Source of the DNA: Candidatus Heimdallarchaeota archaeon
GTDB taxonomy: Archaea; Asgardarchaeota; Heimdallarchaeia; JABLTI01
Length of the DNA stretch: 64,000 nt
Assembly: GCA_018238155.1 (NCBI GenBank)
Contig: JABCTZ010000001.1
Span: forward strand, 32,001 to 96,000
Direction: 5' to 3'
Below are positions 7,089 to 62,920 of the stretch, piece by piece (position 1 is the first letter of the stretch; each line of letters begins with the position of its first letter). The position numbers and the translations under genes were made by a program. Under the pieces are notes generated by a model. That model saw only the letters and a list, made by a program, of their open reading frames with translations, was not told where the DNA came from and ran no database searches.

Positions 7089-7160
7089 ATTACTTCTTCT
7101 TAGAAAAATAGAGATAGAAACCACATTAATACTGGGTTTCTTTCTTAATTGTTGGAGATT

Positions 7161-8657
7161 CTATGTTCCGCCCATTAATGCTAAAGCTAAAAGACTAACA
7201 ATAGCAAGAATAGTAATGACCCCACCTTCTAAAATATCGAAGCTGTTATCATCCATTATCATCATTTTTTCAGCAGTAGACATAATATAAATGCAGCCCA
7301 GCACCATTGTAATATTAATAGTAATAGGGATACCAATACCAATTATACCACTAATCAAGAATGGCAAACCAAACAATAAAAAGAATGTTTGGTTAATTGC
7401 TGATACTTGGTTAATTAAACCTATTTTCTGTGTTTCTTCATCTGGATGTAATAATCCTCTGAAGGTAACAATTAATTCCGGAGAAGTTGAGATTAATCCT
7501 ACAACTACCGCATAAACCAATATTGGTACTTCTATAAGAAAATCATGCTCAAATACATGTAATCCATTTTCAATTCCTGATGCGAGAAATTCTCCGCCCC
7601 AAATGATTCCACCTGCACCTATGGCGAATAATGCAATAATGATAATCCACGGGAATCGTCTTAACGTTGCTAACTCATCATGTTTGCTGTGACTTGTACT
7701 CACTTTCCTTGGTGGTTCACATGGTATCTCTTCATCAAGTTTTGTTTCTATTTTAGTACCAAGTTTCAATTGCACTGTTTCTGATGCCTTTTCATTATGA
7801 TCTGTTTTATTATCATCTTCGTAAAATTCTGTTATTAATGTTTGAGGGGTAGACGTTTTTTTACCATATCGTTTTATTAGAACAAAGATAAATAATCCGT
7901 AAACGAGGAGTAATGCTGCTCCAAAAACGATTTCAACACCTCTGCTATATTGAGAAGGAATAGCTGATTCGAATCGAATGTCGTAGAATTCATAAAAAAG
8001 TCCATACAAAACCATCACAAAAGTGAAGACCTTTATTCCTAAAACCATGTTTGTTTCATACATTGTCAATTCTGGTGGAAGCTTGAATGGACCTTTTTTC
8101 GATACAAAAATCATTGATATTCCAAGAAAGAGTATGTTAATTATTACTGTAGTTAAAATTAGAATAATAGCTGTGGTTGCCAATTTACCACCTACTACTG
8201 GGTCAGGTTCTAAATGTGATCTAATTAAAAGCAATGTAACGATTACAAGCTCTGCAAGTGCAGCTCCGATAGCACTCATTATACCTGCAATATATGGGTT
8301 CATATTCAATTTATCTTTGACCCCTTTTACACCAAGAATAACCATTTCTGATGCTCCAAAAACAATCAATAATCCTGCTGCAAAACCAAGGAGAACTCGA
8401 GACCATCCTGGAAAAACTTCGGGAAATCCTTCTGCGATATAAAAGAATATTCCAACGATGATTCCAAGAATAAAAGTGATTATTGTTGACTTATGTATAT
8501 TCTTGATTATCGTTCCTAGTGCTTCTTCTGGCTCAATCATCTCAAGTATTTCAGGGCATTCTGCATCAGATAGAGGTAAATCAAAATCCTCTGACTCTTG
8601 CAGTGCAACCATTTCTTCATTTTTTTCTTTAGAAATTTTCGATTTTCTTGGCATCAT
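7161..8657 (-). CDS. Ca2+/cation antiporter (CaCA, Na+/Ca2+ exchanger-like)
   Basis: Two TM bundles separated by a hydrophilic loop; alpha-repeat-like AIGAALAEL and ISTSPEL. Confidence 0.75.
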   Translation of the reverse strand: MMPRKSKISKEKNEEMVALQESEDFDLPLSDAECPEILEMIEPEEALGTIIKNIHKSTIITFILGIIVGIFFYIAEGFPEVFPGWSRVLLGFAAGLLIVFGASEMVILGVKGVKDKLNMNPYIAGIMSAIGAALAELVIVTLLLIRSHLEPDPVVGGKLATTAIILILTTVIINILFLGISMIFVSKKGPFKLPPELTMYETNMVLGIKVFTFVMVLYGLFYEFYDIRFESAIPSQYSRGVEIVFGAALLLVYGLFIFVLIKRYGKKTSTPQTLITEFYEDDNKTDHNEKASETVQLKLGTKIETKLDEEIPCEPPRKVSTSHSKHDELATLRRFPWIIIIALFAIGAGGIIWGGEFLASGIENGLHVFEHDFLIEVPILVYAVVVGLISTSPELIVTFRGLLHPDEETQKIGLINQVSAINQTFFLLFGLPFLISGIIGIGIPITINITMVLGCIYIMSTAEKMMIMDDNSFDILEGGVITILAIVSLLALALMGGT

Positions 8658-23371: not shown

Positions 23372-25774
23372 TTGTCTAAAAAAAGTGGAATGATTTGTTC
23401 TAATTGTGGCGTTAATGTAGCTGTTGGTAAATTCTGTCCAAAGTGTGGCGTGGCTTTATCAATATCACTTGAACAAGAATTTGATATCCAAAAAAATAGG
23501 TTGGATGAAATAAGCAAAAAACTTGTTAATTTTGAAAGTTCTGTTTTAAAAGCTCTAGCACTTGACTATCATCAAAAATTCGATGAAATTAAATTTAGTA
23601 TCGATACTTTGATCAATAAAATAGTTCATGATTCTGAAAGAATGAATCTTGAAGGTAAAGAGCTTGAGAGTTCTTTAATAATTTGTTTTAGTTGTGGACA
23701 AGAAGTTGCGCTTACAAAATTCTGTCAAAATTGTGGTAAATCCTTGGTTGAATTTGAAGGCGATTATAAGCAAGGATATGTGCAATATTTGGCTCAAACC
23801 CAGAGAAAGGTTAATCTTTTTAGAGACATGGTTGCAAAAATACTTGCAATTGAAGCTCTCACTGATTTAGAGATTATTATTAAAAACATAAGACAATTGA
23901 TTCTCTATTTTAATAGAGAAGAAGTAGAAAAAGTAACAATCGAAAAAGGTCGAGAGGACGTCGATAGCTCCACTGTTGTTTCGGAGAAAAAACAACCGAG
24001 GACTGCTATTCCAAAGAAACAATTTGAAAAAATGCCTGTTGTTACACCGAAAAAAGCATCCTCGCAAACACAACCAAGTGTTAAGAAAGCAGAAATTAAA
24101 CCTGAACGCAAGAAAAGTGCTGCATATAGCAAGCTCGAAAAAAATCTGCTCGATTATTGGTTCTTTTATCTTGCAACAATTATCTTTAGTGTTGGAATCT
24201 CCATTACTCTTTATTTCGTTTCTGTTGAATTGGAATCAGAGGTTTGGCAATTAGTAATTATTTATTCTATTGGTGCAATAATAATTGGTTTTGGTCAGGG
24301 TCTTAATTTATTAGCAAAACATAACAAGAAGAAAAAATTAGCGAAAGAAGAATCTAAACAAACTTCTGATAAAAAGAAGCAACCTTCGCAAGATGAAATT
24401 ATTAAATATACCCCACAAATGACTTCTGTTATTTCATTTATCGGATTTATTGTCCTCTTTATTGGTGGAATCATTGGTATATTATCTTATGAATCTCTGG
24501 GTGTTTCAAAAGGAGTTTTTATTGGTCTTAGTTTAGGTTTAAGTGCTGTTTGTATGGCAATAAGTATCTTGAATAAATCAGAACTCTTAGCTTTGACTAG
24601 TATTCTTCAAGCAATTATTTTTGTTGCAGTTGATCTTTTATGGGCTCAATATCCTCCTATTCTAAGTAACATCTCAAGTTTAATTGTGTATTCTTTGATA
24701 ATTATTGGTGCTACTTGCGTTTCTGTATTCTTCAAAAAATGGACTGTTTCAGCTGTGTCAATGGCTGTTATTCCTATTCTAATTTGTATACCAAGAGTAT
24801 ATTCGCAGATAGGTCTTGAATTTTTAATTCTGATATTTGTACCAATTATGATTATTTTGACTATTCAATTTGGTTCCGAAAAAATACCTATGCCTATCAA
24901 AAGAAGCTTAGTTGTTTTATCATTTATTCTTCCAACAATATCTGTATTTGTTATTTCACTCACAAGTTATTATAATCCAATTACTGAACCTGTTTGGGCT
25001 GCCTATCAATCATATCAATCGTTGCTTATCGGAGTAGTGATTATTGGTATATCTTATTATTATCAATTCATCCAAGAGAAGCATTTAGATATCAAATCTT
25101 CAAATGAGATCATTTGGTTTGCAGGACAAATTCTTACAGGGATAATAGCTTTTCTAACTGTTGGGCTTTACAAAGATATATTGATAACATCATTATTCTT
25201 TACAATCTTCTTTATCTTTGGAATTTTAAGCACGATTAAATTCTTTAGAGAAAAATTGGCTGTTCAAAATATTATCGCTTCTTTTGTTATAGCTGAAATA
25301 CTTGCTATTCTTATTATTGTCTTAGTGGATGTAAATACAACAGCACAAGCTATACTTGTTTTTATTCTCGGAATTTCGTTTGTGCTTATAACAATAGTTA
25401 GCCTATTTATTCCACATTTGCTTCACCAACAACCAGTACTCTTTTTTATTTGGTTTACTCTTTCAACAATCAATCTAATTTTGCTAGGTTTGATGGAAAT
25501 AATTAGTCCATGGTTAACTTTTGTGATCATTGTTCTTCATTTGAGTTGTTCAATAATAGCTGCTCTTCCAATAATCATACCAAAAGCAACTCGTTGGCGA
25601 GAGTTTTCGGTGACATCCTTAATCCTTAATGGTATAGCAGTTCTAGTATTCTTATTAAGTGGGAGATTTGCTTACTTTGATTATGTTCCACTTATTATTT
25701 TCATATTCTTCTTCTTAGCTTCAATATCGGGCTTTATTAATTGGAAGGAACAGGAGGCAATTATCAATGAATAA
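23372..25774 (+). CDS. Double zinc-ribbon + polytopic membrane protein (DUF2339-like N-half)
   Basis: CSNC..CPKC and CFSC..CQNC, coiled segments, LEKNLLDYWF entry into many TMs. Confidence 0.7.
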   Translation: MSKKSGMICSNCGVNVAVGKFCPKCGVALSISLEQEFDIQKNRLDEISKKLVNFESSVLKALALDYHQKFDEIKFSIDTLINKIVHDSERMNLEGKELESSLIICFSCGQEVALTKFCQNCGKSLVEFEGDYKQGYVQYLAQTQRKVNLFRDMVAKILAIEALTDLEIIIKNIRQLILYFNREEVEKVTIEKGREDVDSSTVVSEKKQPRTAIPKKQFEKMPVVTPKKASSQTQPSVKKAEIKPERKKSAAYSKLEKNLLDYWFFYLATIIFSVGISITLYFVSVELESEVWQLVIIYSIGAIIIGFGQGLNLLAKHNKKKKLAKEESKQTSDKKKQPSQDEIIKYTPQMTSVISFIGFIVLFIGGIIGILSYESLGVSKGVFIGLSLGLSAVCMAISILNKSELLALTSILQAIIFVAVDLLWAQYPPILSNISSLIVYSLIIIGATCVSVFFKKWTVSAVSMAVIPILICIPRVYSQIGLEFLILIFVPIMIILTIQFGSEKIPMPIKRSLVVLSFILPTISVFVISLTSYYNPITEPVWAAYQSYQSLLIGVVIIGISYYYQFIQEKHLDIKSSNEIIWFAGQILTGIIAFLTVGLYKDILITSLFFTIFFIFGILSTIKFFREKLAVQNIIASFVIAEILAILIIVLVDVNTTAQAILVFILGISFVLITIVSLFIPHLLHQQPVLFFIWFTLSTINLILLGLMEIISPWLTFVIIVLHLSCSIIAALPIIIPKATRWREFSVTSLILNGIAVLVFLLSGRFAYFDYVPLIIFIFFFLASISGFINWKEQEAIINE

Positions 25775-27419
25775 TAAACAAGCGCAATCAGTTTCGAAAA
25801 CAAAATCAAAGGAAAATAAAGGCGAATTAGAAGAAGCAACTGGCTCTTTGGTTCAAAAAACCTTTATCTCTAAGTACGTTCACCAAATATTTCTTCTGGT
25901 TTTTATCAATATACTCTTTATCGTTTTTGAGCTTGTGGAAGCTTTCAAAATCAATTGGATCTCTGCAATAGTTTATGGAGTAATATCTATTAGCTCAATT
26001 GGTTATATTTGGACTCAAAAGGAATCGGCTAAATTTCTTATTCCAATACCCTTTATTTCATTGTTAGTAGCAAGTCTATTGATTGACTTTCCATTGTTAA
26101 TAACAATCATTTATGGTATTAATTGTCTATTCTTTTTCATTATTGCAATTATTAAGAAAGATGCTCAAGATTCAATTATCACTACAATAACCACAGGATT
26201 AATGCTAGTAATTTTAACATCATTGTCATTAGTTAATCGAGGTTTTATAAAAGTCGACTATGAGCTAAATGCTATTAGTGGGATGTTATTTTTATGGATT
26301 GTTTGTGCAACAGTATCCACAATAATGTTGAGAGATAATCCTGGGCAGATATTTACCTATATACTTTCAGCTCAAATAATTACCGTAGTTATGCCTTTCA
26401 TTCGACCAGAAGGAGTCAATTCTAACGTTTATACCATAATTTGTGCTTTAGGATTCATAGTCACCGCAGTAACAACTTTGGTTCTGGTAACAAGACATAA
26501 AGAATTAGATGATTTTCATCTTCTTCTCTCAGTTATTGTCCTACAAATAGGCATTGTTATTCTCTCATATTCATTCAATATAGGATTTAATTGGACAAGT
26601 CCTAATAATAATGCTCTTATCATAGATTATGCTCTGCATATTCCATTAGCAATCTTTACAATAGCTAATTATCTTTTTAGTTATTTAAAAAGCAGGGAGA
26701 ATCTATTAGAAGATGAGATAGCTGCTAACGATAAAAGATATTCTCAATTCAAACCTTTCATTCTCTATTTGTCATTTGCAATATCATCATTAGCAATGTT
26801 AGGTTGGGTATTTGGCAATCTAAATCTAATCAATGTTTTAATAATTTCAATACTCTTTTTTGTTGTTGGAATTGTGATAAATAACAAGTATCTGACAATA
26901 ATTACAATGATTACATCCTATTTGTTTATAGGTTTAACAATGTCCTTTGTTGGAAGCGTTGTACTCGATATTATTCTCATTGTTTTGATAAGCATTTCAG
27001 GAGCATTGCTAATTTTCTCAATAATAAATGAAAAATGGATTAAAGGTGAGCCATTAACTACAATATTATCTCTAACTAGTTCAATGATGATAATGATCAG
27101 TTTACTTATTTTGCTGGACTTTAATAGTATCTGGATAGGCGTTAGTTGGGTGCTAATAGGTTTCTATCTCTTTGCTGGAGGAATATTTATGGAAAAAATC
27201 CTTTGGAGAAGAGTTGGGTTAGGCATTATCCTTGGAGATATCGTTTTTTCAATTGTTCTCATTGCTATTAGTGGTGGGTCGGGAATCTTCCTTGGAATAG
27301 GATTTATGGTCATTGCTGTAGTACTCTTTGGATGCATCTTCATGTTTAGATGGTCTGAGCAGAAGCAAGAGGCATACCTTCTTGCTGAAAGTGGTGATGA
27401 AAAAACACTTGAAGAATAA
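25767..27419 (+). CDS. Polytopic membrane protein (DUF2339-like C-half)
   Basis: Many TMs, overlaps the upstream gene by 8 nt, C-terminal W...G...WRRVGL..GFM..VL pattern. Confidence 0.7.
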   Translation: MNNKQAQSVSKTKSKENKGELEEATGSLVQKTFISKYVHQIFLLVFINILFIVFELVEAFKINWISAIVYGVISISSIGYIWTQKESAKFLIPIPFISLLVASLLIDFPLLITIIYGINCLFFFIIAIIKKDAQDSIITTITTGLMLVILTSLSLVNRGFIKVDYELNAISGMLFLWIVCATVSTIMLRDNPGQIFTYILSAQIITVVMPFIRPEGVNSNVYTIICALGFIVTAVTTLVLVTRHKELDDFHLLLSVIVLQIGIVILSYSFNIGFNWTSPNNNALIIDYALHIPLAIFTIANYLFSYLKSRENLLEDEIAANDKRYSQFKPFILYLSFAISSLAMLGWVFGNLNLINVLIISILFFVVGIVINNKYLTIITMITSYLFIGLTMSFVGSVVLDIILIVLISISGALLIFSIINEKWIKGEPLTTILSLTSSMMIMISLLILLDFNSIWIGVSWVLIGFYLFAGGIFMEKILWRRVGLGIILGDIVFSIVLIAISGGSGIFLGIGFMVIAVVLFGCIFMFRWSEQKQEAYLLAESGDEKTLEE

Positions 27420-34870: not shown

Positions 34871-34990
34871 AATTCGACAAAAATTCAATTTCGAATAACT
34901 TTTATAAGTATAATAAATACTAGAAAGTTAGTAATCAGTTTTTCTGATTATTAGAAATTTATAGGAAAAATGAGGGAAAATGAGGAAAAA
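34871..34990 (+). promoter_or_regulatory. Conserved promoter + hairpin leader of secreted-protein/ABC cassette 1
   Basis: GAATAAC-TTTTATAAG BRE/TATA-like; TAGTAATCAG-TTTTT-CTGATTATTA inverted repeat; matches 58131-58250 without gaps. Confidence 0.8.
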
Positions 34991-35522
34991 TAAGAAAATA
35001 TTATTGTTAAGTACTTTAATTTTGACTATGTTAGCAGTAACATTAGTTGCTCAAACAAATAGTGCATATTCACCTGTTCGCCCATTACGCAAAGTGCGAG
35101 TTTTCATAACACAAGTAAATTGTATAGGTCTACCTCAAGGGGGATGGTTCTCTCTTACTTTGTATCCTACATATCTTCGGCCATTTGGAGGTTATGGTGA
35201 TGAATTTACATCAAATTCCAACTGTGGGGATATGTCAGGAGGTAGTTTTCTCTACCCTCCCGGAATTAGTTCTGGAACCCATGTCTATTACAATAACTTG
35301 TATTGTGATTGGTCTCTTTGTATGGACTTTACTCAAAATGCAATATATTGCAGTGGTGAAATTAAAATAAAATATAAATTAAGACAGCACAAATTATGGG
35401 GTCGTACTGAATATATTACAATATTATACAATACTTATTCTTATGATACAGAATATATAACCACTCTGCACTACGGAATGGGTGTTGTAAAAGTATATAT
35501 CACATTTCAGCTTCTAAGCTGA
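34980..35522 (+). CDS. Secreted beta-rich protein of unknown function (cassette 1)
   Basis: Sec-type signal peptide (MRKNKK-hydrophobic-NSA); homologous to 58240-58788. Confidence 0.8.
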   Translation: MRKNKKILLLSTLILTMLAVTLVAQTNSAYSPVRPLRKVRVFITQVNCIGLPQGGWFSLTLYPTYLRPFGGYGDEFTSNSNCGDMSGGSFLYPPGISSGTHVYYNNLYCDWSLCMDFTQNAIYCSGEIKIKYKLRQHKLWGRTEYITILYNTYSYDTEYITTLHYGMGVVKVYITFQLLS

Positions 35523-35536
35523 AAAGCTTTTTTTTT
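35505..35536 (+). terminator. Hairpin + T9 overlapping the stop codon of the secreted gene
   Basis: TTTCAGCTT-CT-AAGCTGAAA followed by AGC and TTTTTTTTT. Confidence 0.6.
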
Positions 35537-35548
35537 AAAAAATGTTGA

Positions 35549-38311
35549 GTGCAAATGAAAGTGAGAGATATGAAAACCATGTTATACCATCTATTTGCAA
35601 AACGAAAAGTACTATTGAAGACTATTATAATCATTGGATTACTATCTCTGATTATTCTGACTTTTCTGTTTCCTGCACAGATTGCCACACCACACATTAT
35701 CAGAAAGCATTTCAATTGGGGGGGTAATCCAATTATAATTGGTGAGGATCTACAAAATAGTGGTCTTAATAATCCGGATTTTATGTATCATTTTAAAGTC
35801 AACAATATCGCTTTTATAACTGAAATTAATCAAATTTGCAAAGAAGCATCGCTTAAGATATATGACTTATATCAACCTTCTTCCATTGGTTGTTTTAGTA
35901 TTGAGCATGTAATTATTACAAATCAAACACTTGAAGATTGGACTGTTTTTGGGATTAATACAGAATTATATACCGAGTTGGTGAGCACATTAAATTCAAG
36001 TTTTGATAATGTACCTATTTTAGTAACTAATCATAGTATAACAACTGGTTTGTATGAGTTCAATTCTAGTAAAATTGGTAATTTTAGTATAACAATTAAT
36101 CATAATATTCAAACTTTGGATCTACAAGAAAAATTACCATCATTTAATAGTTACATCAATGAATTGAATAAATATAGTGATAATCCAATAAACAAATCAC
36201 GAATGATTTTTATTCCACATGAAAGTTTTCAAACAATATTTAAAATTGATATTTTTCTCATCAAGGGTTACATTGAATTCACAACTTATCAAGAGGATAT
36301 TCTATATTGGTCTTTAGATGCACCCAGAAAGCTAAGGTTATTCAAAGAAAGCTTATGTCAAGAGTTTCACGCAAAAGAACAATCAATAAATTATTTATTA
36401 CTTTATCAATCTATAATCTATAAAGAGGGATTAGTAGAGAGTAATGTTCTCATTGTAAATATTATTTATTCATTTATTCATGCAATTCAATTAATTATCT
36501 GGGGATTATCTGGAGCATTGATTTTCTTGATTTTAATAAAAATGCAACAAAATAATAAAGACAAAGAATTTCAGATGCTATTAGCAGGAAAGAATTTTCT
36601 TACGAGAATATCTACAATTGTTTTAGAAAACATTCTTATTGTCACTGGTGTTTCGGTTATTGCTTATGGTTTACTATTGCCTTTTATTAAACTGCAAGCA
36701 CTTATCTTTAATTTTCCATTTGATTTCTATAATGAAAATATTAAATTTGCTCTCATTTTCTTTCCAATAGCATTATTCTTTAGTTTGTTGATTATTTATC
36801 TTGACTTTGAATTGCATTTACGAAAGTCACTTAAAAATGGACAAATCGATAGTGAAACCTATCAACCTTTTGCTAAGATTCCAAAGTATATTCGTTACCA
36901 GATTTTTTTGGTCTTTGTTTTCTTATTATGGTTATTAAATCGCTCATTGCAACCATTTCTATACCAAATAGGATTTTTATTCCTTTTAGGAATAATTAGT
37001 GTTCTTTTATTTTTAGTAATTAAGGGTTGCATGTGGGTTATCATAAGAGTAGTAAAGAAAATTAAACGCAAATATGACAAACCATTATCTAACTTTGTAC
37101 TTCTTCTTGAGATGTGGAAAAAACCAATTAATACAAGATTTGTTCTTAGTAGCTTTATTGGAACAATGATCATTGGTCTCTGCATATTTAGCATTGCTAA
37201 TGCTGAGGTACAGAAAACAACAATGTTTTTCAATAATGATTTTTGTGCTATAAAAACAACAGTTAGTCTTCCAAATAATGATACAACATCTATCGAAGTT
37301 TTTCTACAGAATAATTCATTATTAAATGAACACTATACAAAATTAGTTTTTGCTCAGCACAATCCATGGGATAATATTTCATTTGTACACAACAATCAAT
37401 CAATTGTTGAGTTACCCAAGAACTTTTGCTTATTATATGGTATTAATATTACTGATTATCAGGCATTCTATTCCTCTTGGCGAACAGATAATTGGTTGCA
37501 AAATAGCATACAACCAGAAAAATTGAACTGTTCAAATGCCTTTGTTAGTAAGAGTTTCGCACAGCTAGGTTATGAACTAGGTGATTCAATAACTTTAGTC
37601 AATAATCAAAATGTATCCATTGCTGGTTTCCTTGATCAGTGGATAGGTATTGTTAGTACTGGTAATTATGTTTTAGTTCTTGAAAGTCAAATAATGGAAA
37701 AATTACTATTAGATTCTAATACTTCATCTATAGAATATCAGTTTAGATTCAATAGTGAAGAAAAAAATATTGAACATTCGGTTGAATATCTTCTTAATCA
37801 TTTAAGTGACATTGATGTGCCTTTTGCTATTTCATATGTACCTCCTGATATGATAGAGGGAATAGAATTAGTATTTATCATGCCCATAATGATGACTCTT
37901 GAGTCTTTAGTTATCTTTTTTATAGCAGTTAGTATTTTTAACAATTTGACTGATATTCACTCCAGTGATGAAGCACGAACACTTGGTATTCTTTTTATGA
38001 ACACAGATTTTAAAAAAACCTTGTTTCGCGTGAAACTTTTCGAAATGTTACTTTCGATAACACTTATTGCAGTTATTGTGAGTAGTATACTTGTTGTTTT
38101 TTCAATAATACTTGATAGTAATTTTACTTCTAACAATGTACCGAATTTTATTGAGATAATAAAAGCAGGATTAGGATTTTCAAAAAATATTGTTTTTTAC
38201 TCGATAATTATTTTGCTATTTTATCTTTTAATAGTTGTCGTACAAAATGTTTTTGATTATTTGAAGTTTAATAAATTGAAAATCCATTTATTATTCCGTC
38301 ATATTGAATGA
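35549..38311 (+). CDS. Large FtsX/MacB-like ABC permease (cassette 1)
   Basis: TM, large extracellular domain, TM cluster, arranged twice; LGYELGDSI..IAGF motif; adjacent to LolD-like ATPases. Confidence 0.7.
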   Translation: MQMKVRDMKTMLYHLFAKRKVLLKTIIIIGLLSLIILTFLFPAQIATPHIIRKHFNWGGNPIIIGEDLQNSGLNNPDFMYHFKVNNIAFITEINQICKEASLKIYDLYQPSSIGCFSIEHVIITNQTLEDWTVFGINTELYTELVSTLNSSFDNVPILVTNHSITTGLYEFNSSKIGNFSITINHNIQTLDLQEKLPSFNSYINELNKYSDNPINKSRMIFIPHESFQTIFKIDIFLIKGYIEFTTYQEDILYWSLDAPRKLRLFKESLCQEFHAKEQSINYLLLYQSIIYKEGLVESNVLIVNIIYSFIHAIQLIIWGLSGALIFLILIKMQQNNKDKEFQMLLAGKNFLTRISTIVLENILIVTGVSVIAYGLLLPFIKLQALIFNFPFDFYNENIKFALIFFPIALFFSLLIIYLDFELHLRKSLKNGQIDSETYQPFAKIPKYIRYQIFLVFVFLLWLLNRSLQPFLYQIGFLFLLGIISVLLFLVIKGCMWVIIRVVKKIKRKYDKPLSNFVLLLEMWKKPINTRFVLSSFIGTMIIGLCIFSIANAEVQKTTMFFNNDFCAIKTTVSLPNNDTTSIEVFLQNNSLLNEHYTKLVFAQHNPWDNISFVHNNQSIVELPKNFCLLYGINITDYQAFYSSWRTDNWLQNSIQPEKLNCSNAFVSKSFAQLGYELGDSITLVNNQNVSIAGFLDQWIGIVSTGNYVLVLESQIMEKLLLDSNTSSIEYQFRFNSEEKNIEHSVEYLLNHLSDIDVPFAISYVPPDMIEGIELVFIMPIMMTLESLVIFFIAVSIFNNLTDIHSSDEARTLGILFMNTDFKKTLFRVKLFEMLLSITLIAVIVSSILVVFSIILDSNFTSNNVPNFIEIIKAGLGFSKNIVFYSIIILLFYLLIVVVQNVFDYLKFNKLKIHLLFRHIE

Positions 38312-38332
38312 ATTATGGAGAGAAAGTGAAAA

Positions 38333-39028
38333 ATGGTTTCAGAAACAAAATTACAAGCAAATGAACTTACAAAAATATTTGCTCATCCATCCAAGAAAAA
38401 AACAAATATACCTCTCTTTGCCGGAACGTCATTTGTGATGACAGCTGACAAAATTAATTTTGTTATCGGTCCATCTGGTTCAGGAAAAACCACTCTCATC
38501 AAAATTCTAATGAGTATTGAACCTATAAATGCTGGAGAGATTTTCTTGAATGAACAGACCATTCATTCTCTAACAATGAAAGAACGAAATAGCTATTTAC
38601 AAAAGATAGGATATATGAATCAATTTCCTGCTAAATATCTCTCTTTAGATTCTACCGTTTGGTTTAATCTCGCTCAAGCTTTTTTCCTTCATTCCAAATT
38701 ATCCAGAGAGGAATTAAAAAAACTCATTCAATCAACTGCTTCATTGTTCAGTATTGAACACTTGCTTGAACAAAGAACCAATTTCCTTTCAGGTGGAGAG
38801 CTTCGTCGACTCAGCATTGCTTGCAGTACTATTTTTCAACCTAAGATACTTTTTTGTGATGAACCAACAGCACAATTGGATGAAGAGAATAAGAAAGCTG
38901 TTATGCAAACAATCCTAGATTTGCAGAAAAAGACTAACTGTTTGATTCTTATCTCAACACATGATCAATCCATTATAGATGTTGGCAATGTTTTCGAAAT
39001 AAAAGATAGGAGGATAATAAAATGGTAA
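38333..39028 (+). CDS. ABC ATPase A (LolD/MacB-like)
   Basis: GPSGSGKT, LSGGE, CDEPTAQLD, STHD. Confidence 0.92.
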   Translation: MVSETKLQANELTKIFAHPSKKKTNIPLFAGTSFVMTADKINFVIGPSGSGKTTLIKILMSIEPINAGEIFLNEQTIHSLTMKERNSYLQKIGYMNQFPAKYLSLDSTVWFNLAQAFFLHSKLSREELKKLIQSTASLFSIEHLLEQRTNFLSGGELRRLSIACSTIFQPKILFCDEPTAQLDEENKKAVMQTILDLQKKTNCLILISTHDQSIIDVGNVFEIKDRRIIKW

Positions 39029-39708
39029 TTGAACTAAAAGAAATTCACTATAGCTTTACAAGAAAAATGAAGAATCAAGTAATTATCAAAGAAATTCTCC
39101 AAGGATTGAATCTTTCTGTCACTAAGGCTGAGTTCATTTTAATCACAGGTCCATCGGGTTCAGGGAAAACAACATTGTTACAAATCATTGCTACAATGCT
39201 ACATCAAAAAACTGGCGAACGAATACTTTTTGGAAAAAATCACTCTGATGAACAATCCACACAAGATTTGATTCCAACAAGAAGAAAAATTGGTTATCTT
39301 TTTCAACAACCCTACCTTCCTCCTAAAATGAAAATCAAGGATTTCATTGCTTTACAAGCTATGCTCTCTGGAATTGGCATTAAATCTGCTGAAGAAAGAG
39401 CAAAATCACTTTTAACAGAATTCGATATGATGAATTTTGCTAACAATTATCCTCAGAAATTAAGTGGAGGAGAAAAACAACGCATTGCTCTTGCAGGTGT
39501 TTTAGCTAAAGATATTCAACTTCTCTTATTAGATGAACCTACTGGTTCTCTTGATTCTACAAACAAATCAATTATCTGGGAAGCAATAACTGATTTAAAA
39601 GAAAAAGGTCTTACTATTATTGCTGTCACTCATGACGTCTCAATAACTTCTCTTTCAGATAAAACTTATGAATTGAATTATGGTATTTTAACTAGAAAAG
39701 GAAAATAA
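39022..39708 (+). CDS. ABC ATPase B (LolD/MacB-like)
   Basis: GPSGSGKT, GYLFQ, LSGGEKQR, LDEPTGSLD, VTHD. Confidence 0.92.
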   Translation: MVIELKEIHYSFTRKMKNQVIIKEILQGLNLSVTKAEFILITGPSGSGKTTLLQIIATMLHQKTGERILFGKNHSDEQSTQDLIPTRRKIGYLFQQPYLPPKMKIKDFIALQAMLSGIGIKSAEERAKSLLTEFDMMNFANNYPQKLSGGEKQRIALAGVLAKDIQLLLLDEPTGSLDSTNKSIIWEAITDLKEKGLTIIAVTHDVSITSLSDKTYELNYGILTRKGK

Positions 39709-44067: not shown

Positions 44068-45183
44068 TTACTTTTTTTTACACGCGGGGAGAAAAATAAC
44101 TATTGTAGTGATCAGTTTTCCATTTTCTTTTGAATCTTCTAAGAATACTTTTCCATTGAAGAGATCAACAATATTTTTTACTAAATAGAAACCAAGACCA
44201 TATTTCTGTGATTCGAATTCTGTTATAGGTTGGTTACTCATCTGTGGTACATTCTCTGATTTAACTGTTAGTTTTAGTTCTACCGTAGGAATTTCTTGCT
44301 CTTCTTCATTAGTTAATGAATTCGTTTTCTTAAGGTCCAAATCAATGATTATTTGATTCAGAAGTCCGGGCATAATCATTGAGAAAAACAATTCATAGAA
44401 TAATTCTTGGAGTTCTTTTTCTGTTCCTAAAACAAAAATTTCATTGCTTGGAAATTCATTTAATTGATCGATCTTACAATCAACATCAGTATTTCTTAAG
44501 TTTTCAAGAACTTGCTTCAATATTTCAACTATATCTAAACAAATGAACTCATCAGCATTCATTGTATGAATTTTCTTCATTTTTTTGTAAGAATGAAGTA
44601 GTCTGGCATTGTTATAATAAATGGTATTGATTATTGCGAGACTTCTTTTTTGTTTCTCAGTTAAATTCTCATCTTCTAAAAGCTCAATTGATTCTGCGAG
44701 TGCTTTTGTTAAAATTTTGAAATCACGCACAAGAATAGTATTGAAAAAATCAAGTTGATAATTTAAGTGAGTGATTTCATCTAAGTTCTCTTCAATTTGA
44801 ATATGACTTTCATGCCTTTTCATTACTTTCTCAATCGTATCTAGTAATAAATTCACATCAATTGGTTTTTCAAGGAGACCACATGCAACATATGAAGAAA
44901 GAACTTCCTTTGCTGATTCATAAGAAGAGTGACCTGTGATGATAATCGATTCTGTTGTAGGGGAGATACTTCTTATTTGTTTAATTACTTCAATGCCCGA
45001 AGTATCGGGTAGCATTAAATCTACTAATGCCAGATGCGGTTTTACCTTTTCTACTAATTCAATTGCTGAACTGCCATCAATAGCAATAAAAGTTTCATAC
45101 CCATTTCGAGTTAAAAGTTCCTGTAACAAAGTGCGAATTAGTTCGTTATCATCAATAACTAGTATTTTTGCCTTTAACCCCAT
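44068..45183 (-). CDS. Receiver domain fused to degenerate histidine-kinase core
   Basis: LVIDD, DLMLPD, ITG, EKP receiver; H-box reads RD instead of HD; only the G2 box YGLGFYLV is retained. Confidence 0.8.
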   Translation of the reverse strand: MGLKAKILVIDDNELIRTLLQELLTRNGYETFIAIDGSSAIELVEKVKPHLALVDLMLPDTSGIEVIKQIRSISPTTESIIITGHSSYESAKEVLSSYVACGLLEKPIDVNLLLDTIEKVMKRHESHIQIEENLDEITHLNYQLDFFNTILVRDFKILTKALAESIELLEDENLTEKQKRSLAIINTIYYNNARLLHSYKKMKKIHTMNADEFICLDIVEILKQVLENLRNTDVDCKIDQLNEFPSNEIFVLGTEKELQELFYELFFSMIMPGLLNQIIIDLDLKKTNSLTNEEEQEIPTVELKLTVKSENVPQMSNQPITEFESQKYGLGFYLVKNIVDLFNGKVFLEDSKENGKLITTIVIFLPACKKK

Positions 45184-45355
45184 AATGAACACATCTTAAA
45201 TGTTATTTTTTGCTCAAAGAATAATTTCTATTATTGAAGAGGAAAAATGTTTCATATATGTTTTATGGATGGGACAATTATTTCATCTTTTTAATCAAAA
45301 AACACAAAAGCATATTAATATCAAAAAACATGCTATCCATCGGAGTTTTAATTAA

Positions 45356-58130: not shown

Positions 58131-58250
58131 AAACCGACAAAAAACCAATACTGAATAACATTTATTAATATAATTTGCGTTGGAGAACTAGTAATCAGTT
58201 TTTCTGATTATTAGAAATTTATTGGAAAAATGAGGAAAAATGAGGAAAAA
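58131..58250 (+). promoter_or_regulatory. Conserved promoter + hairpin leader of cassette 2
   Basis: 58189-58250 matches 34929-34990 at 60/62; 58131-58174 matches 34871-34914 at 34/44 with the same offset. Confidence 0.8.
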
Positions 58251-58788
58251 ACAATTACTTGTAATATTGTTAATATCAATCTTTTGTTGTTCCATTTTTT
58301 TAAGGATGAATTCAACAAATTCCACAACAATAGAGCTTGATAAAATACAAATTGTAATCAATAAGATAGCTGTAACAGATGAATTGGCGAAAGTATGGTT
58401 TTTTAGTACTTGGTACTTTATGGAAATTGAACCAATGTACAAAAGACACTTTGGAACTTGGGGCGATCGACTTCAAAATAGTGATTTTCAATATGAGGAT
58501 TGGATTGGTAGTTCAAATAGATATCCTGCTGGAATTGAAGCTAATAAAATCAAGGTTTATTCTAATATTCTAAATATTGAGTATTCTTATTGTTTACCTT
58601 TTGAAGACGATGACAAATCTGAACTATCTCTCAGCTTCACACTCCACAGAAGAAATCCACATGGCAAGCATGTCTTTACTAAAGAATTTAATAATTTGGA
58701 CTACGGAGTTATGTATTCGAGTGGAGATTTGAATTATAGAAATTATGGCGGGCATGTGACTGTATATTTCACAGTCAATTTATTGTAA
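58240..58788 (+). CDS. Secreted beta-rich protein of unknown function (cassette 2)
   Basis: Signal peptide; shares P.Y.R.FG..GD, YP.GI, VY.N, V.VY.T..LL with 34980-35522. Confidence 0.8.
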   Translation: MRKKQLLVILLISIFCCSIFLRMNSTNSTTIELDKIQIVINKIAVTDELAKVWFFSTWYFMEIEPMYKRHFGTWGDRLQNSDFQYEDWIGSSNRYPAGIEANKIKVYSNILNIEYSYCLPFEDDDKSELSLSFTLHRRNPHGKHVFTKEFNNLDYGVMYSSGDLNYRNYGGHVTVYFTVNLL

Positions 58789-58812
58789 TGGGAACACCAT
58801 TACATTTTTTTT
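58784..58812 (+). terminator. Hairpin + T8 overlapping the stop codon of the secreted gene
   Basis: TGTAATGG-GAACA-CCATTACA-TTTTTTTT. Confidence 0.65.
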
Positions 58813-58851
58813 AAGAATTAAATAGAATGAATAAGAGGAGATGGTTGTACT

Positions 58852-61536
58852 ATGATGAAAATATTTTATAACTTACTTTCGAAGAAAAATTCTCTAATTA
58901 AGCAGATTATGATATATAGTTTGATAATAATTGTTTCTGTAAGTGTTTTATATCTACCTCAAGTAGCTAACCCTCATAATCTTAGAAATTATTTCAGGAA
59001 TTTTAGCAATGGTGGATTATATTTCAAAGAAGGCACCATTGATTGGGATCGATATGGATATGACTTTGAAACAACAGCTGGGCAGTCTAGCTCTTTAGGC
59101 TTCTTTGATAATTTTTCTGATATTTTAGAAACAACATCCAAAGAAGTTTATGGTTTATTTGAACCTTCAGAGTATTATTGTATTTCAAAACTAAATATTT
59201 ACATCAATAATTTGACTATCGATAATCAATTTTCTTTGATTCCAATAAGCTCTAGATTCTATAATGAAATAGGAAAATTATTGAATACTACTTTCATCGG
59301 TGGGTCATTAATTATTACGAATACCTCAAGTTTCTCATCAGGTTCATACAATATAACTTATAATAATCAAAATACCTCTATTTCAATAAATTATCTTATT
59401 GAAAGCAATCTAATAGAAACATATTATCCTTCTCTGAAACATCAAATCTTTGGAAATCAACAAAATGATAATTTAACAAATATTATTTTAATGCCTGTGG
59501 TTGAATTCTCTCCAATATTTGATAATCTAGAAAAGTCTTTTAGTAATAAATATCATTTTGAAGTTTATATCAAGTTTTCTGATTTTCAAAAGGATGTTAT
59601 ATTTTGGTCTATTAATTCTCAATCATTATTACTAGATTTTGAAGAGACTTTAATTGCTAACCTCCAATCAGTTGAATCAACTTTAACAATTCAATTTTTT
59701 AGGAATCAAGATTTTTCGATAGCGAATAATTCCATCTTAATCAAGACTATTTTTTCATTTATTCGTGGTATCCAAATTACCATTTGGATAATATCAATAG
59801 CTATTGTAGGATTAACAATTTCACAAGTTAAAAAGAGTGGGCTAAAAAAAGAAATGCGTATTTTAATGGCTGGAGAAAAATGGTCTACTCGATTAATCAG
59901 CCATTTTTCTGAAATATCTATTATTGAATTCTGTAGTTGCTTGATAGCATTACCAATTTCATTTCTATTTATGAAAGCTCAGATTTTAATTGGATTAGAT
60001 TTTAGTTTTACAAAAGCAATGGCTTTGGGGTATGGACTGATTCCTATCTGTTTTCTATGCCTGTTATTTGGTTTTTATTTTGATTTTGAATTTTATCTTC
60101 GACGTATTTTAGAAACTGGTTTTTCATCTGAAAAATATCGTCCATTCACAAAAATACCAAATATCGTCAAAGTAATGCTTATTCCAGTTGCATTCCTTTT
60201 AGTTTGGTTATTGAACAAATCACTTACTTCACTTTTGTTTCAATTAGGTTATATTATTGTTGTAATTATAATTGCATCTTTGGTTGGTTTTTTGATAAAA
60301 TCTTTGCTTAAAGTAATATATCGGTTTAGTATTAAAAGAAAAAGGAAAGTGGATCAACCTCGTTCAGTTTTCAATATTATTTGTCAATTATTTAACAAAT
60401 CACTTGTAAATAGGGTTCGAGTCTTTTCTTTTCTATTAACAATTGTTTCTTTAATGTTCTTTTATACAGCTATTACTGCTGATGGTTTTAAAAATGGTTA
60501 TTTATTAATGCACGGCAGTGAGATAAGTGTTACTGTAAATGCCGATTCAAATTCAACGTTGATTAAAGATACACTCATTAATAATTCCAATATTCTTGAT
60601 TATACAATTATATCTATGATTAATCACAACCAAGTGTATAATATTACGGTATTGAAAGAATCTTTTGATAATGATTCATGTTCAATTTATGGTTTGAATA
60701 TAGATGATTATTTCAACTTTTATAAGACTTGGAATAAGCGAAATTGGCTTCAAAGTGGAACACTTGATGCTTTAGATAACCAATCAATATTTGTAAGCTT
60801 AAAATTCAAAGAGTATAATTATGACATCGGTGATAATTTAGTATTAAAAGATAATTTATCTTTAACCATAGCTGGTTTTTTGAATGAGTGGTCTGGTATT
60901 TCTGATATATATTGCACAAAAAGTCAATTAATAGTAGCTCTGACTCAACCTGATATGTTACATATTCAAGGTTTTGCTGGTAATGGTTCTGTTTCTTATA
61001 CCTATAAGATTCATGTCAAACCAAAGAATATTATTCCAACAGTTAATTACTTAAATGAGAAACTGTCTGCATTAGATTCATTTGAGGAAATAACTGCTAT
61101 CGATTTCATGATTTTTATAGGAGTCCGAATCGTTTTCTTATATCCTATTTGTTTACTTTTTGAGCTTTTCATATTAATCATGATTGCTCTAACTATATAT
61201 TCAAATATCGTACCAATGCAATCAAATGAAAATTTCAAGTTATTTGGTTTAATTTCAATGAATGCTGATTACAGGAAACCCTTTAGGAATTATAAGATCT
61301 TTGAAAATATTCTATTTAGCTTTTTGTTCGTTTTGATTCTTTCATTATTTTTATTACTGGGTAGTATTTCTTGGGTTCTATTATCCCCGGGTGATTTTTC
61401 TTTCTCCTCTCAAACAATACTATATACGGGAATATTTTTCGCTCTTTATATTGCTCTCTTATTCATACAGAGTTCAATAGAATACATTAGTTTCAAGAAA
61501 CTAAAATTAAATTTACTATATCGTCATTCAGAATGA
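58852..61536 (+). CDS. Large FtsX/MacB-like ABC permease (cassette 2)
   Basis: Paralogue of 35549-38311 (PQVANPH, DFE..LR, PF.KIP, NWLQ, IAGFL..W.GI, LL.RH.E end). Confidence 0.7.
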   Translation: MMKIFYNLLSKKNSLIKQIMIYSLIIIVSVSVLYLPQVANPHNLRNYFRNFSNGGLYFKEGTIDWDRYGYDFETTAGQSSSLGFFDNFSDILETTSKEVYGLFEPSEYYCISKLNIYINNLTIDNQFSLIPISSRFYNEIGKLLNTTFIGGSLIITNTSSFSSGSYNITYNNQNTSISINYLIESNLIETYYPSLKHQIFGNQQNDNLTNIILMPVVEFSPIFDNLEKSFSNKYHFEVYIKFSDFQKDVIFWSINSQSLLLDFEETLIANLQSVESTLTIQFFRNQDFSIANNSILIKTIFSFIRGIQITIWIISIAIVGLTISQVKKSGLKKEMRILMAGEKWSTRLISHFSEISIIEFCSCLIALPISFLFMKAQILIGLDFSFTKAMALGYGLIPICFLCLLFGFYFDFEFYLRRILETGFSSEKYRPFTKIPNIVKVMLIPVAFLLVWLLNKSLTSLLFQLGYIIVVIIIASLVGFLIKSLLKVIYRFSIKRKRKVDQPRSVFNIICQLFNKSLVNRVRVFSFLLTIVSLMFFYTAITADGFKNGYLLMHGSEISVTVNADSNSTLIKDTLINNSNILDYTIISMINHNQVYNITVLKESFDNDSCSIYGLNIDDYFNFYKTWNKRNWLQSGTLDALDNQSIFVSLKFKEYNYDIGDNLVLKDNLSLTIAGFLNEWSGISDIYCTKSQLIVALTQPDMLHIQGFAGNGSVSYTYKIHVKPKNIIPTVNYLNEKLSALDSFEEITAIDFMIFIGVRIVFLYPICLLFELFILIMIALTIYSNIVPMQSNENFKLFGLISMNADYRKPFRNYKIFENILFSFLFVLILSLFLLLGSISWVLLSPGDFSFSSQTILYTGIFFALYIALLFIQSSIEYISFKKLKLNLLYRHSE

Positions 61537-61553
61537 ATATCGGAGGTAATAAT

Positions 61554-62255
61554 ATGGCTAATACTATAAATAAAATATCTGCGCACGAGATTACAAAAAT
61601 CTATCCTCATCCTAATAAAAAAGATGTTAATTTCCCTGTTTTTGCTGGTGCATCTTTCATTATTACTAGTGAGTCTATTAATTACCTATTGGGTTCTTCG
61701 GGATCGGGCAAAACAACATTGCTAAGAATGCTTCATGGGATTGAAAAAATTAACGCTGGAGAATTAATATTCAATGATGTTGTGATTAATAGTTTAAGTG
61801 GAAAAGAAAGAATTACTTATTTAAAAGATGTTGGTTATATGGATCAATTTCCCTCTGATTACTTGTCAACAAACCTTACTGTTGCACAAAATTTGGATTA
61901 TTCTTTGTTGCTTCATCAAAGCTTACCGAGAGAGATACGAAAAAAGAAAATCGATGATATCGCAACTAAATTTCATTTATCAAACCTTCTTCAACAGAAA
62001 ACTCTTTCAATTTCAGGAGGGGAAATGAGGCGTTTAGGTTTAGCTTGCAGTATTATTTTTCAACCAAAAATTCTTCTCTGTGATGAACCAACAGCTCAAT
62101 TAGATAATGAAAATAAGAAAGATATTATGAAGATTTTTCATGAAATTGTATCAGAATTTAATCCAATTATCCTTATTGTGACCCATGATAATTCAATTAC
62201 AGATCCAAAATTTACACTTAAGATAGTTGACAGGAGGATCCAACAATGGAGTTAA
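61554..62255 (+). CDS. ABC ATPase A (cassette 2)
   Basis: GSSGSGKT, ISGGEMRR, CDEPTAQLD, VTHD; GGAGGT RBS before ATG at 61554. Confidence 0.92.
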   Translation: MANTINKISAHEITKIYPHPNKKDVNFPVFAGASFIITSESINYLLGSSGSGKTTLLRMLHGIEKINAGELIFNDVVINSLSGKERITYLKDVGYMDQFPSDYLSTNLTVAQNLDYSLLLHQSLPREIRKKKIDDIATKFHLSNLLQQKTLSISGGEMRRLGLACSIIFQPKILLCDEPTAQLDNENKKDIMKIFHEIVSEFNPIILIVTHDNSITDPKFTLKIVDRRIQQWS

Positions 62256-62920
62256 TAAGATTAGAACATATTCAATTTTCATTTGGTAATAATTCAAAAG
62301 AACAAAAAAAAATTTTGGCTGATATCAATTTAACTATCACTAAAGGGGACTTTCATCTCATAACAGGTCCTTCTGGATCGGGTAAAACAACCTTATTACA
62401 GATACTTGCTACTTTGTTATTTCCAACAAGTGGTAAATACTATTACGTAAACCAAGAGATCAATCGAAATTCTTCCATAGAGGAATTATCATCTCTCAGA
62501 TTAAAAATTGGTTATTTATTTCAAACTCCTTTTTTACCAAATAACCTTAAAGTCAAAGATTATATTGAAATTCAAGCCGAATTATCAGGAATGGGTATAG
62601 CTTCTGCAGAAAAGAAGTCATTGAGTTTATTAGAAGATTTTGGCATCGTAAATTTAGCTTCATTAAAACCTGGAACTCTAAGTGGTGGAGAAAAACAAAG
62701 AGTTGCATTAGCTGGTCTTTTTATTAAAAACAGCAAACTTTTGTTATTTGATGAACCTACAGGATCACTTGATTATGAAAATAAAAAAATATTTTGGGAA
62801 TTACTAGTACAAGCAAAAAAACAAGATACGACTGTAATAACAGTCTCACATGATGAATCATTATCAGCTTTTTGTGACCATTGTTTCAATTTGGATTATG
62901 GAGTTTTAACCCCTCTATAA
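62246..62920 (+). CDS. ABC ATPase B (cassette 2)
   Basis: GPSGSGKT, GYLFQ, LSGGEKQR, FDEPTGSLD, VSHD. Confidence 0.92.
   Translation: MELIRLEHIQFSFGNNSKEQKKILADINLTITKGDFHLITGPSGSGKTTLLQILATLLFPTSGKYYYVNQEINRNSSIEELSSLRLKIGYLFQTPFLPNNLKVKDYIEIQAELSGMGIASAEKKSLSLLEDFGIVNLASLKPGTLSGGEKQRVALAGLFIKNSKLLLFDEPTGSLDYENKKIFWELLVQAKKQDTTVITVSHDESLSAFCDHCFNLDYGVLTPL

Follow-up and report, generated by a model that had tools for sequence, protein, structure and literature searches.

Two paralogous export operons in the genome of a Candidatus Heimdallarchaeota archaeon were found to begin with nearly the same leader of 62 nucleotides, and this near-identity conflicts with the trees of the proteins that the operons encode. 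Several other cassettes of the same operon family carry a hairpin at the equivalent position, in each case with an unrelated stem sequence. On balance, we think it probable that the element is a leader typical of the family, that its hairpin forms a 5'-terminal RNA stem-loop and that recent gene conversion between the two paralogs has homogenised it. The window referred to below is the whole stretch of 64,000 nucleotides that was analysed, which is C24:32001-96000 in the searched genome of 4.08 Mb (32.8% G+C, 46 contigs). The features annotated in cassette 1 (c1) and cassette 2 (c2) are as follows.

34875-34883, plus strand: CGACAAAAA box of cassette 1, upstream of the core promoter; candidate site of a family-specific transcription factor
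34893-34908, plus strand: BRE-like purine stretch (34893-34899) and TATA-like octamer (34901-34908) of cassette 1; predicted by motif scan
34915-34928, plus strand: non-conserved spacer from the TATA region to the leader; 4 of 14 positions identical between the copies
34929-34953, plus strand: leader hairpin of cassette 1, 10-bp stem with T5 loop; base at about the predicted start (34929-34932)
34954-34979, plus strand: A/U-rich linker and purine-rich tandem 10-mer, with ATG at 34970, AGGA at 34963-34966 and GAGG at 34972-34975
34980-35522, plus strand: first gene of cassette 1, signal-peptide protein of 180 amino acids (ORF list)
35549-39708, plus strand: remainder of cassette 1 after the small-protein gene (ORFs and family searches)
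35549-38311, plus strand: membrane protein of cassette 1, about 920 amino acids (ORF list)
38333-39028 and 39022-39708, plus strand: ABC ATPases of cassette 1 (ORF list)
58135-58143, plus strand: CGACAAAAA box of cassette 2 (motif scan)
58161-58168, plus strand: TATA-like octamer of cassette 2 (motif scan)
58189-58250, plus strand: second leader copy, with hairpin (58189-58213), linker, tandem 10-mer and ATG at 58240
58240-62920, plus strand: genes of cassette 2 taken together (ORFs and family searches)
58240-58788, plus strand: small secreted protein of cassette 2 (ORF list)
58852-61536, plus strand: membrane protein of cassette 2 (ORF list)
61533-62255 and 62246-62920, plus strand: ABC ATPases of cassette 2 (ORF list)

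A direct comparison of the two copies (34929-34990 and 58189-58250) gave 60 identical positions out of 62, as the initial annotation had stated, the differences being A at 34963 versus T at 58223 and G at 34976 versus A at 58236. The first part of the block is an exact 34-mer (34929-34962 and 58189-58222), for which none of 100 shuffles of the window gave a match. The 62-mer occurs twice in the genome, both times in the window and in direct orientation, and a DNA search of 60 related genomes with the 129 nt of promoter and leader returned matches at noise level only. Exact scans of genome_contigs and metagenome_contigs did not find the hairpin core. An assembly chimera at one of the copies would be a trivial explanation of the repeat, and nothing was found for it; both copies lie within unique sequence on a single 115.7-kb contig, each runs in frame into its own signal-peptide gene, and they differ at two positions. 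Contig ends overlap by exactly 127 nt, which indicates an assembly k-mer longer than the 62-nt repeat, and the probability of a chimera is therefore practically negligible.

The identity was reported to stop after codon 3 or 4, and its end indeed falls inside codon 4 of the true ORF, so that the first 11 coding nucleotides are included. The true start is the second ATG of the leader, at 34980 in copy 1 and at 58240 in copy 2. The first ATG (34970) is out of frame and opens a reading frame of seven codons in copy 1 and 36 in copy 2; an upstream ORF was rejected on these lengths, which leave no conserved peptide. After the hairpin and the linker come two and a half units of a tandem 10-mer (34964-34973, 34974-34983 and 34984-34993), of which the second matches at nine of ten positions in copy 1 and at all ten in copy 2 and the third is degenerate. 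Weaker similarity reaches upstream to 34867 and 58127 (81% over 124 nt) and is interrupted by the 14-nt spacer at 34915-34928, where the copies agree only at the level expected of random sequence. The 62-mer is predicted to comprise the complete 5' untranslated leader and the first 11 coding bases of the two export operons.

The host genome is archaeal, with 1391 bits against the archaeal SSU model, and public records list homologs of the small protein under the name Heimdallarchaeota. Each of the two leaders precedes an operon of four genes, the products of which are a small secreted protein, a roughly 900-residue membrane protein and two ABC ATPases. The small protein matched no Pfam or NCBIfam family, and the membrane protein belongs to no known family and gave no match when its profile was compared with PDB sequences. 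The best models for the ATPases are of the LolD, FtsE and bacteriocin-export types, all of them below the curated cut-offs. Structure prediction from an alignment of seven sequences gave the small secreted protein a beta-sandwich fold, preceded by an N-terminal signal helix (mean pLDDT 76), and the solved structures most similar to it are eukaryotic C2 domains (cPLA2, perforin and synaptotagmin-like), a weak similarity with E of about 2e-4 and TM of about 0.5 by target length. Between the small-protein and membrane-protein genes of both cassettes lies a hairpin containing G+C, with a T-run behind it (35505-35524 and approximately 58784-58812), and it may lower read-through into the transporter genes.

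A third cassette was found in the same genome (L027, C16:20677-26403); it has a TATA-like box and carries neither the leader hairpin nor the CGACAAAA box nor the 62-mer. The operon family occurs in eight of the ten other genomes of the genus and, beyond the genus, in one further genome among 83 of the class that were searched; the profile search of these 83 genomes gave no new cassettes, and the profile of the small protein recovered only cassettes already known. Exact look-ups found neither of the two small proteins on record. For an ATPase of cassette 2, the same kind of look-up led to a 4.65-kb contig of GCA_018238125.1 that is 100% identical over 4,478 nt; this contig starts inside the membrane-protein gene, so that the leader falls outside it. 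In the related genome GCA_035528035.1, where the cassette is the one also known as G010 C53, a gene of the IS605 OrfB/TnpB type and another resembling MazE directly precede the cassette (L050:2357-3820).

The comparison with an ortholog shows that the flanking genes do not share the history of the leader. The metagenome contig RCNB010001494.1 (L030) carries an ortholog of cassette 1, and the small protein, the membrane protein and the two ATPases of c1 and L030 are 56, 66, 78 and 78% identical. The corresponding values between c1 and c2 are 32, 30, 53 and 50% by global alignment; taking BLASTP and global alignment together, they amount to 28-32% for the small protein, 28-30% for the membrane protein and about 50% for the ATPases, and the L030 proteins are 30-52% identical to those of cassette 2. 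In the maximum-likelihood tree of the membrane protein, c1 and L030 pair as sisters at the end of a long stem (support 100/100), their patristic distance being 0.54 against at least 2.8 from c1 and L030 to c2, and cassette 2 is placed elsewhere in the same 99/99 clade, together with G008_C152 and G007_C91. The leader shows the reverse pattern: c1 and c2 agree in 97% of its positions, whereas the leaders of c1 and L030 admit no alignment. That of G007_C91 likewise bears no relation to the 62-mer, and neither a small gene nor a comparable leader was seen upstream of G008_C152. The leader therefore groups the paralogs where the flanking proteins group the orthologs, an incongruence that is based on one ortholog, L030. 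The flanks of the L030 cassette (1-2400 and 7100-7624) gave no matches to the window neighbours in a translated comparison, which implies either relocation of the cassette or rearrangement of the DNA around it.

The tract is far more similar than its flanks and has sharp edges, with the random-level spacer on one side and unrelated coding sequence on the other. The 10-nt tandem duplication is a derived character that is common to both window copies and absent from L030, which points to a recent common ancestry of the two leaders. Retention of the leader since the duplication of the cassettes would require about three independent losses in addition to near-absolute constraint, whereas conversion would require one event. 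One leader would accordingly have been copied over the other in this lineage by non-reciprocal recombination, that is, by ectopic gene conversion, and the transfer would have taken place after the split from the L030 lineage. The initial annotation had read the near-identity as evidence of strong constraint. This does not hold, because the orthologous cassette of L030 and other members of the family lack the sequence, an observation that the annotation itself had named as telling against its view; the identity is better explained by recent gene conversion than by deep conservation. Repeated homogenisation was not observed, since the cassettes with readable leaders in G007 and G010 share none within their genome.

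The tufA and tufB genes of Salmonella are a known case of concerted evolution by interlocus gene conversion between prokaryotic paralogs. The present case resembles it in that a short, near-identical tract lies in old paralogs and that the tree of the tract conflicts with that of the flanking genes. It differs in that the tract is 62 nt long, non-coding leader and archaeal, and in that its ends coincide with the predicted transcript start and with the start codon, so that selection may also act on it.

Two observations count against a simple conversion tract with chance boundaries. The flanks are too diverged to be obvious substrates of homologous recombination, and the identical block begins almost exactly at the predicted start. 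After the upstream box, the promoter block (34875-34914) is alike at 24 of 39 positions between the paralogs versus 16 of 39 between the orthologs, and it is more diverged between the two window copies than the leader is (11 of 50 versus 2 of 62 differences, Fisher p = 0.003). The block thus reflects either an older conversion or a level of constraint different from that of the leader, and the lower divergence of the leader could be due to selection on the transcribed region rather than to a chance boundary.

The boundaries and the low divergence of the block also bear on the reading in which the whole 62 nt is a fast-evolving, sequence-specific functional RNA or target site whose copies are kept identical by purifying selection, since the block matches the transcribed leader from the predicted start to just inside the coding region and is more similar than the core promoter, with the spacer between them at random level. 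We nevertheless consider this reading quite unlikely. It would be exceptional for all 62 positions, those of loop and linker among them, to be under constraint; the leaders of orthologous and paralogous cassettes have no sequence in common with it; the derived duplication absent from L030 points to recent common ancestry; the best Rfam matches have E-values of 3.6 and 5.1, far below the gathering scores; and no complementary partner longer than 19 nt for the leader exists anywhere in the genome. Selection exerted by a lineage-specific trans-acting factor, either protein or RNA, that reads the whole leader and makes the two operons a co-regulated pair is unlikely as well; were it true, the hairpin at the start would represent an undescribed class of Asgard mRNA 5'-end element that sets the stability or translation of secreted-protein operons.

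The 23 kb between the two copies contain pyrB, pyrI, genes for 2-hydroxyacid dehydrogenases, a glycosyltransferase and an EMC3-like protein, and genes for a pilus-type ATPase and its platform. A response regulator with a receiver domain and about 250 residues without Pfam match is also encoded between the cassettes (44068-45192, minus strand). The initial annotation had offered the repeat as a recombination handle for swapping downstream cassettes, which might thus be exchanged or inverted behind one promoter. In its favour, two direct repeats bound this segment exactly at the 5' ends of paralogous cassettes. We nevertheless found no support for this option and regard it as highly improbable, for there are two copies only, each with its own similar promoter, and a crossover between the direct repeats would remove cassette 1 as well as pyrB/pyrI and further housekeeping genes. 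In addition, Pfam scanning of ORFs between and beside the cassettes detected no gene for an integrase, invertase or transposase, the scan of the 23 kb having revealed no recombinase and no obvious DNA-binding regulator, and no common handle is seen in other genomes that have two or three cassettes.

With recent gene conversion as the preferred explanation of the identity, the structure of the leader can be considered separately. The BRE/TATA-like stretch is conserved between both cassettes and, judged by its motifs, is presumably the promoter. The TATA-like octamer starts at 34901 and 58161, 28 nt before the hairpin in both copies as previously described, and the start predicted from it (34929-34932) coincides with the base of the stem, in agreement with the earlier statement that the hairpin begins near the expected transcription start. 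Folding also reproduced the stem of 10 bp with one G-U (G-T in DNA) pair and a T5 loop, the arms being 34929-34938 and 34944-34953. The core is a perfect 7-bp inverted repeat (34932-34938 and 34944-34950) that has a 5-bp spacer and arms extendable to 10 bp, and the base pair just outside the block is formed too, as C58188-G58214 in copy 2 and as U-G in copy 1. The fold energy of the 82-nt leader as a whole is ordinary in comparison with shuffles (z = -1.3); the local hairpin lies within the best 5% of 600 upstream regions of the genome. The purine-rich region of the start and of ribosome binding is unpaired in the predicted fold.

Upstream of the promoter, the CGACAAAA box (an 8-9-mer on the sense strand) was found in five of the 18 family cassettes against an expectation of 0.05, at -105 in c1 and c2, -93 in L030, -132 in L013 and -142 in L024. 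In L013, a partner at a distance of 22 nt completes a 10-bp inverted repeat with the box. From its occurrence, this box is a good candidate for the real transcription-factor site of the family.

All cassettes that begin with a small-protein gene were surveyed for leader hairpins, giving ten independent leaders with the two window copies counted once. The measure was the best energy in 36-nt windows over the last 90 nt before the start codon, and the 600 upstream regions of the genome served as controls (median -5.0 kcal/mol, 5th percentile -9.7). Six of the ten leaders fall within the best 5% of the controls (c1/c2, L030, L013, L025 and L031 by the tabulated values), with a best hairpin energy of -10.0 in both c1 and L030, and two more are found near the 14th percentile. 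No convincing hairpin was seen in three to five leaders, namely c3, L016 and L026 and, by energy, also L022 and L019x. An automated test asked for a TATA-like octamer matching at 7 or more of 8 positions and, 22-34 nt beyond it, one hairpin with an energy of -7.5 kcal/mol or lower. Five of the ten leaders showed this arrangement, as against eight of 300 controls (2.7%); the binomial probability of about 4e-6 overstates the independence of the leaders, which are kin. A comparable spacing of 22-34 nt was noted by eye in L030, L019x and L016.

With the 5' end of the TATA-like box placed at about -30, the distance from the hairpin base to the predicted start is at most about 4 nt in c1/c2, L030, L013, L022, L025, L031 and L019x. 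The stem sequences of these leaders are unrelated; L030, for example, has a perfect 11-bp hairpin of different sequence at the equivalent place. Across the operon family it is hence the structure and position of the hairpin, not its sequence, that are conserved. A hairpin at the predicted start is supported as a recurrent and enriched feature of the family in a sample of about ten related leaders, and because of this recurrence some function of the structure is likely. Among the three options put forward by the initial annotation, a structured 5'-UTR RNA fits best, a functional structured leader being supported at the level of the family. Two other roles were considered and rejected: the T5 loop is not taken as part of an archaeal terminator or attenuator, because other hairpins of the family lack T-rich loops, nor is the hairpin a terminator of the upstream gene, which is divergent in both copies.

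Whether such a palindrome acts as DNA or as RNA was assessed from its strand asymmetry and its variation. Owing to G-U pairs, which would be mismatches in DNA, the sense strand has a lower folding energy than the antisense strand in c1 (-9.6 versus -5.4 kcal/mol), c2 (-11.2 versus -6.8) and L031 (-9.0 versus -3.3). The reading as RNA is also backed by stems that vary in sequence while keeping structure and position, by cassettes that come with no regulator gene among the scanned ORFs, by the U and the C just outside the block, both of which pair with the same G, and by the open purine-rich start region of the predicted fold. Against it, most stems are equally good on both strands, those of L030, L013, L025 and L019x folding equally well as palindromes in DNA, and a DNA palindrome may be the alternative. 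A second TATA-like motif is present in cassette 1 (34909-34917) and in L030, 8-17 nt further downstream in both; if it were used, the start would fall inside the palindrome, centring the palindrome on the start and leaving the intact hairpin outside the RNA.

The alternative that follows is a DNA operator, in which a dimeric factor bound at or just after the start blocks RNA polymerase and one regulator serves both operons, conversion or selection keeping the two sites matched. Archaeal repressor operators of this kind include palindromic sites of winged-helix regulators, and the likeness consists in an inverted repeat right downstream of the TATA box. A site over the start that blocks recruitment of RNA polymerase is the usual mode of archaeal repressors (PMC12993045), and the perfect 7-bp inverted repeat with its 5-bp spacer does lie at the predicted start. 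A half-site hexamer of the window palindrome also recurs in the palindrome of L030, although in the opposite arrangement and within an otherwise different sequence. The resemblance to known repressor operators ends there, as the G-U pairs are out of place in such a site, no cognate regulator gene was identified and the site is not conserved among orthologs or paralogs. No transcription-factor gene was found among the Pfam-scanned ORFs in or adjoining either cassette, and a genome search that tolerated up to three mismatches gave no third site. The palindrome sequence differs between cassettes, even between L022 and L026 of G007, as well as between orthologs, so that each cassette would need a regulator of its own. 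An operator would also not account for a loop, a linker and a 10-mer repeat that are alike in both copies. The earlier suggestion of a dimeric-regulator operator thus keeps its palindrome at the start and loses its nearby regulator and its regulon sites, and we judge it fairly unlikely, although it is a serious competitor of the RNA reading.

The hairpin would most likely act in RNA, where, as a stem-loop at the 5' terminus, it would protect the mRNA or tune it. The proposed layout would run from the CGACAAAA box through the BRE/TATA-like promoter to the hairpin at the predicted start, then to an unstructured purine stretch and the start codon. According to works that PMC3997798 cites, bacterial mRNAs are stabilised by stem-loops at their 5' ends, and in the aprE leader a 5' stem-loop together with ribosome binding gives a long-lived mRNA for a secreted protein. 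The stabilisers of ompA and papA in E. coli and of aprE in Bacillus subtilis have a stable hairpin at or near the 5' end, here the predicted 5' end, and as in these bacterial leaders an open, purine-rich ribosome-binding stretch follows the hairpin, here before a gene for a secreted protein; provided that the start is predicted correctly, the present leader would work as they do. The bacterial 5' stabilisers, and above all the aprE leader, are thus the closest working analogy, one of function and not of a homologous family. Unlike ompA and aprE, the leader belongs to an archaeal host with a different set of RNases, for which beta-CASP nucleases are candidates. Three beta-CASP nuclease genes were found in the genome, two of them of aCPSF2/RNase J size, and aCPSF2 is a 5'-to-3' exonuclease that acts on archaeal mRNA (PMC3792030).

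The tandem 10-mer had been described as supplying a GAGG ribosome-binding site. The repeat itself is present; the role in ribosome binding is doubtful. The genome makes heavy use of Shine-Dalgarno sequences, the 3' end of its 16S rRNA carrying the usual CCUCC anti-Shine-Dalgarno, and GAGG starts 15-11 nt before its start codons and practically never at -10 to -8. With respect to the true start, GAGG is at -8 in both leader copies and so falls outside this range, and AGGA at -17 occurs in copy 1 only, since one of the two substitutions removes it from copy 2. The tandem repeat hence supplies no normal ribosome-binding site. It may be a slippage duplication of the start region; by analogy with the 5' stabilisers of Bacillus, one might speculate that it is a 'parking' site for ribosomes.

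Other repeated elements were noted in the genome of the window. A second leader-like repeat of 55-69 nt, about 95% identical, is found at three loci (C10:3038-3104, C4:109371-109439 and C20:144954-145009), where it includes a tandem 16-nt unit and ends in a start codon. CGACAAAAAA occurs 15-30 nt before the start codons of four paralogous genes (C20 at about 209453 and 211544, minus strand; C29 at about 1365 and 7716, minus strand), the products of which have a similar N-terminal helical sequence, and these genes may be another small family with a common leader. CRISPR-like arrays with two related repeat types of about 37 nt are located at C12 (about 7800-8560), C15 (about 363600-364620) and C27 (about 25000-26350).

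The finding combines two known things, a gene-conversion tract and a 5' hairpin leader, in a little-studied archaeal lineage. For the reading of genomes it carries a caution, as near-identical non-coding DNA in old paralogs can be the result of copying and not of constraint. The leader is a candidate for 5'-end mapping in metatranscriptomes and, should genetic tools arrive, for use as an expression leader. The operons themselves provide a secreted protein, a predicted beta-sandwich, with a dedicated ABC machine, and one common leader suggests that both export operons are expressed together. Almost nothing is known of post-transcriptional control in Asgard archaea, and the present case offers a plan of box, TATA-like element, hairpin and open ribosome-binding stretch.
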